DNA of 64,000 bases from Paludibacteraceae bacterium (lineage in GTDB: Bacteria; Bacteroidota; Bacteroidia; Bacteroidales; Paludibacteraceae): NCBI GenBank assembly GCA_024689005.1, contig JAILDU010000093.1, forward strand, positions 649-64,648, read 5' to 3'. Under the pieces are notes generated by a model. It had not been told where the DNA came from. It ran no database searches and was given only the letters and a program-made list of their open reading frames with translations. Shown one piece after another: positions 54,845 to 57,477 of this stretch (position 1 is its first letter; each line of letters begins with the position of its first letter). Both the position numbers and the translations under genes were made by a program.

Positions 54845-57477
54845 TATCCTTTGAGCGCTTTGAGTGATTCCTCCAGCGCTGCTATACGTGCTTCGGCATC
54901 GGCTTTCTTCTTTTGTTCCAAAGCTACCACTTCCGGTTTGGCGTTTTGCACGAAGCGTTCGTTGCTCAGTTTGGCCATGACGCCGCGCAGGAAGCCTTGT
55001 TGGTGAGCCAGGTCTGCCTCCAGTTTCTTGATCTCCTCGTCCACGTTAATGAACTTGTCCATCGGAATGGCGAACTCGGTTGTGCCGACGATGAACTTAG
55101 CGCAGTTACTGTTGATAGCTGACAACTGATTGCAGATCTCTATGTTAGCGAGTTTGTCCACCAGCGCGTTGAGTTCAACCGGGCTGATGAGCGTCAGACG
55201 CTCTTTTTGCGGGATGTTCTTCGAGGCGCGCACAGCACGAATCTCCGTAATGATCTGCTTAATATATGCTATATTGTCTAGGATTGTCTCGATATTCTCT
55301 CGATTCTCCTTCGATGCAGGCTCGGTGAGCGATGCAGTCATGATCGACTCGCCGTCTTTGCGCTCGTAGAGGTTCTGCCACAACTCTTCTGTGATGAACG
55401 GCATGAACGGGTGGAGCAGTACGAGTAGGCGATCGAAGAACGCCAGTGTTGCTTCGTAGGTTGCGCGGTCAATCGGTTGTTGGTAAGCCGGCTTGATCAT
55501 CTCCAGATACCAACCGCTGAACTCATCCGTATAGAGTTTGTAGATAGCCATCAGAGCCTCCGACAGACGGTATTTGCTGAAGAGGTCTGCTATTTCTTCG
55601 CTTGTTTTGGTCAACTGAGCCTCAAACCATTCGATGGCATATTTGGATGTCTCGGGCTGAGCGATGTCGGCTATCTCCAATCCCTTGACCATGCGGAAGC
55701 AGTTCCATATCTTGTTGCAGAAGTTACGTCCCTGCTCGCAGAGCGAATCATCGTAGAGGATGTCGTTGCCGGCCGGCGCGCTCAGCAGAATACCCATGCG
55801 GACACCATCGGCGCCGAAGCGCTCAATCAGATCCAGCGGGTCAGGACTGTTGCCCAGCGACTTACTCATCTTACGGCCCAACTTGTCGCGAACGATACCC
55901 GTGAAATAGACGTGCTTGAACGGCATCTTACCTTGGTATTCATAGCCCGCCATGATCATTCTGGCTACCCAGAAGAAGATGATATCCGGTCCGGTTACCA
56001 GGTCTGCGGTCGGGTAGTAATAACTGATCTCTTTGTTCTTCGGGTTCTCTATTCCGTCAAACAAGCTGATAGGCCACAGCCACGAACTGAACCATGTGTC
56101 CAGCGCACCTTCGTCCTGTACGTAGTTGCCTTCCGGCTTGGTCTCGCTGACGATGATCTTGTCGTCCGGGTAGTTCTCCAGACCGGTCTGTGCGAGCAAG
56201 TCTGCGTCGTAATATGCAGGAATGCGGTGACCCCACCAGAGTTGACGGCTGATGCACCAGTCTTTGATGTTTTCGAGCCAGTTACGGTAAGTGTTCTTGT
56301 ATTTAGACGGGTAGAAAACGATCTCGTCGTTCATTACCGGCGGCAGAGCGATGTCGGCAAAGTGCTTCATCTTGACGAACCACTGCAGACTTAAGCGCGG
56401 CTCGATAGGCACGTTCGTACGCTCGCTGTAACCCACTTTGTTGTCGTAATCTTCCACTTTCTCCACCAGTCCGATAGCCTGCAGGTCTTCTACAATCTGC
56501 TTGCGGCAATCGAAACGGTCCATGCCGTGGTACTTACGTACGTTCGGTTGCAACTCTTCCTCCACCGTGTCCATGTTCAGGTGTGCGTCCGGTGTGAAGA
56601 TGTCGATGGTCTTGAGGTTGTATTTCTGTCCCAACATGTAGTCGTTCACGTCATGTGCCGGCGTCACTTTCAGACATCCGGTACCGAAACCTATCTCTAC
56701 ATAGCGGTCCTCGATGATAGGAATGACACGACCCACACCCGGTACGATCACGTGCTTGCCTTTCAGCCATTGGTTCTTCTCCTCCTTGGGGTTGATGCAG
56801 ACTGCAATATCGCCGAAGATGGTTTCCGGACGTGTGGTAGCCACAATGGCGTATTTGCCCGGTTCCTCTGCTACCTCGTAACGCAGATAGTAGAACTTGT
56901 TATGCTCGTCGTGATAAATAACCTCCTCGTCGCTCAGCGCTGTCTGACGCTCCGGATCCCAGTTGACCATACGCAGACCGCGGTAGATCAGGCCTTTCTT
57001 GTACAGGTCGCAGAATACATGTATAACGGCCTGGCTGCGCATCTCGTCCATCGTAAATGATGTGCGGTCCCAGTCGCATGAGCAACCCAGTTTGCGCAAT
57101 TGCTTGAGGATGATGCCTCCGTGCTCGTCGGTCCAGTCCCAAGCGTGTTTGAGGAACTGCTCGCGGGTCAGGTCGCTCTTGTTGATGCCTTGCTCTTTCA
57201 AGCGTTTGATGACCTTAGCCTCTGTCGCGATGGATGCGTGGTCTGTTCCCGGCACCCAGCAGGCATTCTTGCCCTCTAGACGTGCGCGGCGCACTAAGAT
57301 GTCTTGGATGGTCTCGTTCAGCACGTGACCCATATGGAGCACACCCGTTACATTGGGTGGCGGTATAACTACTGTAAACGGAGTGCGGCCGTCCGGCTCG
57401 CTGTGAAAAAGGCGCTTGTCCAACCAGTATTGGTACCAACGCGCTTCAATGTCTGTAGGATTGTACTTCGATTCCAT
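54844..57477 (-). CDS. valS: Valine--tRNA ligase
   Basis: [12 protein letters not shown] (HIGH motif), KMSKSLGN (KMSKS motif), C-terminal coiled coil, 877 aa. Confidence 0.98.

Follow-up and report, generated by a model that had tools for sequence, protein, structure and literature searches.

The window analysed here is a 64,000-nucleotide stretch of DNA from a Paludibacteraceae bacterium (GenBank assembly GCA_024689005.1, contig JAILDU010000093.1, positions 649 to 64,648 of the forward strand). It contains valS, the gene for valyl-tRNA synthetase (ValRS), and within valS lies a patch of five 11-bp units. The 20-bp core of the patch recurs in two intergenic arrays of 11-bp units and in a gene for a glycosyltransferase of family 9 (GT9). 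The features that carry the argument are the following:

54844–57477, minus strand: valS, 877 amino acids (aa), with domains tRNA-synt_1 (14–573) and Anticodon_1 (617–762) and a coiled-coil arm (811–876)
55270–55324, plus strand: the valS array patch, composed of five 11-bp units and encoding ValRS residues ~718–736 on the minus strand
55272–55291, plus strand: 20-bp core TATTGTCTAGGATTGTCTCG in valS, minus-strand reading ETILDN
21160–21290, plus strand: intergenic 11-bp array with the core at 21212–21231, left units TCAGCGTAAGG and right units AACTCGAAGTC; its neighbours are a tRNA_edit-domain gene (20559–21038) and an open reading frame (ORF; 21405–21995)
33381–34325, minus strand: GT9 gene, 314 aa, product 100% identical to a protein from a Paludibacteraceae metagenome-assembled genome at NCBI
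33672–33730, plus strand: array-like patch in the GT9 gene, ~5 units, core at 33689–33708; the minus strand encodes ..WVDSETILDNTRVNSG..
42480–42660, plus strand: intergenic array of ~15 units of 11 bp, core variant TATTGTCTAGGATTGACTCG at 42526–42545, flanked by a CYTH-domain gene and by an MlaE gene

Sequence shared by valS, GT9 and the intergenic arrays

The plus strand of the valS patch reads tatattgtcta, ggattgtctcg, atattctctcg, attctccttcg and atgcaggctcg. From position 55289, the triplet TCG occurs four times at a spacing of exactly 11 bp, in agreement with an earlier sequence-only reading of this DNA, which had TCG closing four consecutive 11-mers. There are eight TCG runs of at least three at lag 11 in the window, compared with zero to two at each of the other lags between 6 and 18 and with 0.2 in shuffled sequence, and the valS run is the sole lag-11 run within coding DNA. 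Self-similarity over the whole window has the same period: six segments (511 bp) are self-similar at lag 11, and each other lag between 6 and 16 gives zero or one.

The 25-mer TATTGTCTAGGATTGTCTCGATATT is present in exact copies at 21212–21236 and 55272–55296 and with three mismatches at 33689, and it found no match across 100 shuffles; the identity between valS and the array at 21212 reported by the sequence-only reading is thus exact at both sites. In a scan for exact repeats 14 bp or longer, the longest in the window is the 26-mer CTCGAGTATTGTCTAGGATTGTCTCG, identical at 21206 and 33683, followed by this 25-mer; the same scan yields a 20-mer identical at 33689 and 55272, and the 16-mer GTATTGTCTAGGATTG at 42525. 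The common element of these repeats is the 20-mer core TATTGTCTAGGATTG(T/A)CTCG, which is exact at 55272, 21212 and 33689 and has one mismatch at 42526. The four copies all point the same way. Both valS and the GT9 gene are encoded on the minus strand, and the core is read in one frame as ETILDN in both, so that the same peptide is encoded by identical DNA in the two genes, as had been proposed. The valS patch is present in two more independent assemblies of relatives, at loci L098 (93.9% nucleotide identity) and L105 (96.7%), and therefore it is not an assembly artefact. Chance and assembly artefact are excluded as sources of the shared sequence.

The array in the ValRS linker

The patch is located within the Pfam Anticodon_1 envelope, about 75 residues ahead of the coiled-coil arm. 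The region aligns to Thermus ValRS (1GAX) with gaps, and the family alignment contains a hypervariable stretch between the motifs GESIM and LK(E/Q)I..IR.(I/V)R. In 120 relatives this linker is 19–48 aa long and rich in short repeats. The sequence-only reading had placed an array-derived patch in a variable linker before the coiled coil. Its tolerance to change stands, since the linker is hypervariable and rich in insertions and deletions across the relatives, whereas its position needs correcting, as the patch lies inside the Anticodon_1 envelope and does not directly precede the arm.

The window ValRS is 3 aa longer than that of L011, the closest species representative (89% identity), and 5 aa longer than that of L010. 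The patch is not a discrete recent insertion: its peptide aligns with DEALLADIETLKQ, the ancestral start of the helix in outgroup ValRS proteins (L010, L001), an 11-bp array with lineage-specific units has occupied the site across a wide clade, and the patch itself is common to relatives with 94–97% nucleotide identity. The linkers of many relatives contain NQTNETLTRENR- or KHGNDTATTRNR-type peptides, which can be read as an 11-bp repeat, (AACGAGAnnnn)n, translated in three frames; the DNA bears this reading out in eight fetched relatives and in L018, where it was checked. The valS gene of L018 (an 88% identical relative) carries a perfect (GTAAACGAGAC)x4 repeat at exactly this site, with the register unchanged (L018:5139–5218), which translates as VNETETRRKRDVNETV. 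The eight further relatives have a constant ATCCTAGAC(A/T/C)(A/T)TAC segment, and their 5′ units are lineage-specific, being CGAGACAATCC, CGAGAGTATCC, or CGGACTCATCT x3. The step between linkers of 27 and 38 aa is 11 aa, which corresponds to one 33-bp block of three units. The array is thus an old resident of the ValRS linker, evolving like the intergenic arrays.

In-frame tandem duplications are present in the same linker in other sub-clades (P0138, P0145, P0148, P0150, P0152 and others), for example of 7 aa (LQVTGEG/LQVTG), 8 aa (ASLNDRMS/ASLND) and 3 aa (LGD/LGN). The ValRS linker is a general duplication hotspot.

In a codon test of six valS lineages, one codon was kept in 23 of the 103 conserved columns with degenerate residues. 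The core codons ATC CTA GAC are all three invariant in these lineages, while the flanking codons drift synonymously, which argues for a DNA-level force on the core, either conversion or selection on a site. CTA accounts for 1 of 78 leucine codons elsewhere, and the rough probability of the result is P ~0.006. The outcome that would have refuted the sequence-only reading, an ancestral segment conserved in protein across genera with synonymous variation like that of its flanks, does not apply: the segment is absent outside one clade, and in that clade the core has less synonymous variation than its surroundings.

Close relatives differ at the edge of the array. Between the window and L105 there are no mismatches in 55205–55320, followed by five within 10 bp (55321–55330) at the array edge, which change the ValRS residues TE to FG. 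This cluster looks like a micro-conversion. The window and L098 differ by a single mismatch within 55205–55344, at position 55317. Synteny with L098 stops at 57595, in the spacer upstream of valS, and the remaining 8.5 kb of L098 have no match in the window.

Two other resemblances to the core in valS were set aside. The N-terminal segment at 57449–57475 (ATGTCTGTAGGATTGTACTTCGATTCC, encoding KYNPTDIE) resembles the core only if indels are allowed, and it was treated as a chance likeness. Matches with three or four mismatches in valS genes of other genera correspond to the native ETIFGD motif of ValRS.

Replacement of conserved residues in GT9

The GT9 protein does not differ in length from 21 homologues with 60–67% identity to it. 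Its residues ~204–225 (VDSETILDNTRVNSGILSDLK) stand in place of the consensus AKKYxNVESVAGxYxLREELE, and over residues 201–220 the identity to homologues falls to 0.08. The protein deviates from its homologues at 11 of the columns with a conservation of 90% or more, and seven of the 11 deviations are within residues 207–222. The DNA of the patch is array-like over ~5 units and has a 26-mer and a 13-mer in common with two intergenic arrays; the 13-mer, CGGAATTGACTCG, is shared with the array at 42499. Potential donors for the patch are thus available in the same genome at 21206–21236 and 42499–42545. The patch is a same-length overwrite of about 20 residues, by which seven near-invariant positions have been broken. 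GT9, rather than valS, provides the clearest sign of templated replacement.

The core inside other genes

The core is also present in frame in several further genes. In DNA polymerase I (locus L082) it lies between the 5′-3′ exonuclease and polymerase domains, with eight array units, and the encoded peptide ATRATREQHETILDN is closely similar to ATRATREQYETILD of one ValRS (P0161). Two orthologues of dipeptidyl peptidase IV (DPP IV) that are 45% identical to each other have 27 identical nucleotides directly after the DPPIV_N domain, with the core in frame. A radical SAM protein has an in-frame core with phased flanking units, and the core is in frame in a GT2-acyltransferase-oxidase fusion and in an unannotated ORF of 231 aa. 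The well-supported coding copies are all on one strand and in one frame, of four that are open, read E(T/S)ILDN, and are located in linkers or loops. The native peptides that they replace were already similar to the replacement: E-x-I-L-x-D in ValRS, NVENT in GT9 and ILEDNxAL in DPP IV. The frame bias fits both a conversion guided by homology and a survival of conservative replacements only.

A family of 11-bp arrays in a rumen clade

Metagenome contigs were scanned for exact matches to TATTGTCTAGGATTGWCTCG, which identified 24 loci. The 20-mer is present in ~15 distinct intergenic contexts, inside [N7-CTCG]n arrays of which the remaining units vary by locus. Seventeen arrays aligned on the core give the unit consensus A..G.CTCG.., approximately ATTGTCTCGNN, with TCG in phase. 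Conservation in the corresponding logo decays over ~3 units to the left and ~4 units to the right of the core, which identifies the 20-mer as the invariant core of arrays of ~100 bp. The core holds two ATTGTCT half-sites 10 bp apart, and the flanking units follow at an 11-bp period. A member of the family is thus an array of roughly 6–15 tandem 11-bp units around an invariant core of 20–22 bp.

The arrays share a vocabulary of units. Words of 13–22 nucleotides are common to non-orthologous arrays across the window and other genomes, including a 22-mer at window position 5935 and in L104, and 17- to 18-mers in L089 and L096, L090 and L092, and L089 and L104. In L008, an 11-bp array (2867–2975) begins directly after the valS stop codon, and its unit GATAACCATAA is equal in 10 of 11 bases to the unit ACCATAGGATA of the window array at 60926–61015, which is at a non-orthologous site. 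The orthologous arrays of L088 and L095, and those of L085 and L094, differ by 22-bp blocks of units and by replaced units. Arrays of close relatives thus change by the gain or loss of 11 or 22 bp and by unit replacement.

The arrays are positioned between co-directional genes, in either orientation. The flanking genes are unrelated to each other: they encode a tRNA-editing protein, MlaE, CYTH, HsdS, LpxA, RecA, FtsK/LolA, TetR/TolC, Ham1 and NadC. When the valS loci of 80 species were compared, five of the 12 closest had lag-11 arrays, and none of the 68 other Bacteroidales loci did. The family is restricted to a rumen Paludibacteraceae-like clade and typically lies between genes; the in-frame copies in valS, GT9, DNA polymerase I, DPP IV and the radical SAM protein make this location typical rather than obligatory.

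Other repeats in the window

Outside valS and GT9, all arrays of the window are intergenic, and by our estimate they make up ~15% of the ~4.1 kb of intergenic DNA. In addition to those listed above, they are:

4197–4320, plus strand: intergenic 11/22-bp array, units TATCGTATATC and TATCGTGTATC, core absent
5942–5985, plus strand: short intergenic 11-bp array of CCTTCGATATG units; a 22-mer is common to it and to the array at metagenome locus L104
22036–22062, plus strand: short intergenic 11-bp array, TAAAACCCCGA; the inverted unit occurs at 42615 and 42637 and in L090
59322–59481, plus strand: two intergenic 11-bp arrays, TCGTCGGTATC x3 at 59322–59355 and TATCGAGGTTT-type units at 59443–59481
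60926–61015, plus strand: intergenic 11-bp array, ACCATAGGATA x5

The array at 42480–42660 is unlike most others in that the orientation of its units flips around ATTGTCTTGAAGACAT (42570–42612), and its arms at 42492–42510 and 42591–42609 are 84% complementary. The spacer with the 4197–4320 array also contains a 9-bp tandem repeat, GAATTGTGG x3.6 at 4415–4446, ~30–60 bp upstream of a promoter-like TAatTTTGCGCG (~4478). Promoter-like blocks that combine TAnnTTTGCGCG with a run of A/T, in the manner of a Bacteroidetes-type -7 element, are found at 4478–4492, 21368–21382, 42366–42390 and 57554–57575. Among them, the positions 42368 and 57554 have an identical 16-mer, AAAAAATCGCGCAAAG, and an inverted 15-mer links 21368 and 42375; some of the blocks are preceded by arrays ~80–170 bp upstream. 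A second family of short repeats consists of heptamer arrays (AATTATC / ATCAATT) at 7393–7425, 38084–38111 and 59697–59724, with the 21-mer TCAATTATCAACTATCAATTA identical at 7405 and 59702.

Comparison with known elements

Pho boxes, which are recognised by response regulators of the PhoB/PhoP type, and, on plasmid R1, the 11-bp ParR iterons of parC consist of several successive direct repeats of half-sites, to which the proteins bind head to tail along a single face of the helix. The likeness to the arrays lies in a half-site of 6–7 bp and a period of 10–11 bp, and the TTGTCT of the core resembles the CTGTCA of Escherichia coli. The arrays differ from these operators in that no cognate protein is known here, there is no regulon coherence, no par genes are nearby, and the arrays are far more numerous per genome.

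Among dispersed repeats, the STRR (short tandemly repeated repetitive) heptamer arrays of cyanobacteria and the TAACTGA arrays of Beggiatoaceae (PMC4679880) are also very short direct repeats that are intergenic, dispersed, restricted to a lineage, flanked by unrelated genes and without an established function. Their unit is 7 bp long and exclusively intergenic, whereas that of the present family is 11 bp, one helical turn, with varied units in a shared vocabulary, and only the present family has a 20-bp invariant core and in-frame copies in essential genes. BrickBuilt of Porphyromonas gingivalis, a combination of a minisatellite and a MITE (one of the miniature inverted-repeat transposable elements), is likewise a dispersed, multi-copy, tandem direct repeat near gene ends in the Bacteroidales (PMC4596501). 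However, it has 23-nucleotide repeats in a MITE with a leader and a tail and is exclusively intergenic, while the present arrays have 11-bp units, are without conserved flanks or inverted repeats, and have coding copies. DNA uptake sequences in coding regions (PMC2817400) resemble the core as DNA-level motifs in tolerant regions with a preferred frame; the present motif is far sparser, is part of a tandem array, and has no known link to competence. SPDIR (double illegitimate recombination in short patches; bioRxiv 10.1101/2023.11.22.568220) produces short ectopic replacements with clustered changes and little or no change in length, as in the GT9 patch and the cluster at 55321–55330. SPDIR events are rare and idiosyncratic, whereas here one donor family recurs across many genes and lineages.

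Several identities can be rejected. REP, BIME and REPIN elements, attC sites and terminator hairpins do not agree with DNA-folding z-scores of -1.1 to +1.5 and the absence of inverted repeats from the valS and GT9 patches. The arrays are not MITEs, as conservation in 17 of them does not extend past ~4 units from the core in either direction and there are no terminal inverted repeats. They are not CRISPR arrays, in which repeats of 23–47 bp alternate with unique spacers of about that length, as the period is 11 bp and there are no spacers. A diversity-generating retroelement has a template and a variable repeat of tens to ~150 bp that differ at adenines, with a reverse transcriptase nearby; this is inconsistent with shared stretches that are exact, 20–26 bp long and present in more than two copies in unrelated genes, although no screen of the window for a reverse transcriptase was made. 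An RNA-level role, such as rut-like YC phasing for Rho, was set aside because the core is found in both orientations relative to flanking genes, and a transcription-factor site of one regulon because those genes are functionally unrelated.

An Rfam scan of the whole window matched no family and thus gives no support for a known RNA element, and a scan of viral contigs for the core had no match, hence no phage link in that collection. Sites of sigma-70-type promoters and terminators around 21212 were no more frequent than in shuffles. GC skew is uninformative about replichore orientation because it follows the coding strand: gene orientation changes from plus to minus at ~30250, between convergent genes, and the skew flips there too. 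Literature searches on 11-bp arrays in Bacteroidales and on the unit sequence brought up nothing relevant, and no description of the family was found.

Origin and maintenance of the shared sequence

The units of the arrays turn over quickly and are exchanged, the core resists synonymous change, and conserved protein sequence has been overwritten. The valS patch belongs, as a copy within coding DNA, to a clade-specific family of dispersed 11-bp repeats. It is probable that this family forms phased protein-binding arrays, the copies of which are homogenised by short-patch conversion. The identity between valS, GT9 and the intergenic copies would be maintained by ectopic short-patch gene conversion, a templated repair from many copies of the family for which SPDIR is a documented precedent as regards short ectopic patches, and purifying selection on the core as a putative protein-binding site may be a second contributor. 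The intergenic arrays may serve as phased platforms on which a protein is bound at every helical turn, starting from the core as nucleation site. This role is favoured because the two ATTGTCT half-sites 10 bp apart and the weaker units at each helical turn resemble phased operators. The copies in valS and GT9 would be tolerated passengers without a functional part in the enzymes.

Several observations weigh against binding platforms homogenised by conversion. We know of no protein that binds the core or the arrays. Conversion is read from the pattern of the sequences. With a nearest GT9 homologue of just 67% identity, neither a tract end nor a junction microhomology could be delimited, and in valS the array is old and has undergone reworking. 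The zero-mismatch stretch at 55205–55316 in three relatives may be the product of mosaic recombination between strains. An exact-match metagenome search cannot reveal the variability of the core, and by our estimate one or two of its matches are expected by chance; L099, with its GC-rich context, looks like one of them. The orientation of the arrays relative to flanking genes is mixed, and therefore they have no simple transcriptional role. Furthermore, the 11-bp arrays of the clade's more distant members are built from unrelated units (TTATTATGTTA, GATGACCATAA), so that one sequence-specific protein cannot account for all 11-bp arrays.

The main alternative, possible albeit somewhat doubtful, is minisatellite-like DNA that is selfish or neutral and has no cellular function. 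Its 11-bp units would be made and copied by a mutational process specific to the clade, such as slippage, break repair from a template, or an annealing of ectopic single strands akin to SPDIR. Units would then persist where they are harmless, in spacers and protein linkers, and the homogeneity of the core would be purely concerted evolution. Such an origin agrees with a period, rather than a sequence, that is constant across the clade, with the fast turnover and exchange of units, with the functional incoherence of neighbouring genes, with the cluster at the array edge, where two sequences of 96.7% identity differ at five positions within 10 bp, and with the confinement of coding copies to tolerant regions and one benign frame. 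SPDIR has been documented as writing short ectopic patches at microhomologies (bioRxiv 10.1101/2023.11.22.568220). However, the core persists in valS lineages that are 74–84% identical over the C-terminal 250 residues and in many arrays, whereas functionless sequence is expected to drift between species, and the strict phasing without indels over up to 15 units suggests a constraint on helical register. We consider it rather unlikely that the repeats represent an active, undescribed system of 11-bp units, whether a chromosome-wide protein-binding 'code' of phased unit words with a universal 20-bp nucleation core or a unit-writing or repair mechanism that places and homogenises units anywhere in the chromosome, including essential genes such as valS and polA. 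In either form, a constraint at the DNA level would override protein conservation, as in the overwrite of GT9.

The uptake sequences of Neisseria and Haemophilus occur roughly once per kb and in both orientations. The ~4 copies of the 20-mer per 64 kb, all in one orientation, without inverted pairs and embedded in tandem 11-bp arrays, are unlike such signals, and competence is not known for the clade. It is thus very unlikely that the 20-mer is a DNA uptake or genome-tagging signal spread by biased uptake and recombination, including into tolerant coding positions, even though its coding copies in variable protein regions with one preferred frame match the description of uptake sequences (PMC2817400) and the motif is identical across related genomes. 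Least credible is that the core in valS is ordinary ancestral coding sequence, identical to the arrays by coincidence or convergent codon usage, or an assembly artefact. The ancestral peptide E-x-I-L-x-D does resemble ETILDN, and the native ETIFGD motif elsewhere in ValRS matches the core with three to four mismatches in other genera. Nevertheless, an exact 25-mer together with a 26-mer arose in none of 100 shuffles, four phased TCG triplets flank the core, the rare leucine codon CTA is fixed, the same DNA is present in unrelated genes, and three independent assemblies agree.

Implications

The 11-bp arrays belong with the dispersed families of short tandem repeats, to which they add an unusual reach into essential genes and conservation at the DNA level there. 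Enzymes as essential as ValRS and DNA polymerase I are shaped at the DNA level by a dispersed repeat family, the 20-bp core of which is held identical across unrelated genes and lineages against synonymous drift, and in GT9 the core costs seven otherwise near-invariant residues. Such patches can mislead analyses of gene trees, selection and recombination, and they are potential strain markers. The family may mark a DNA-binding system not yet known, or an unusual recombination process, in abundant, uncultured Bacteroidales of the rumen.

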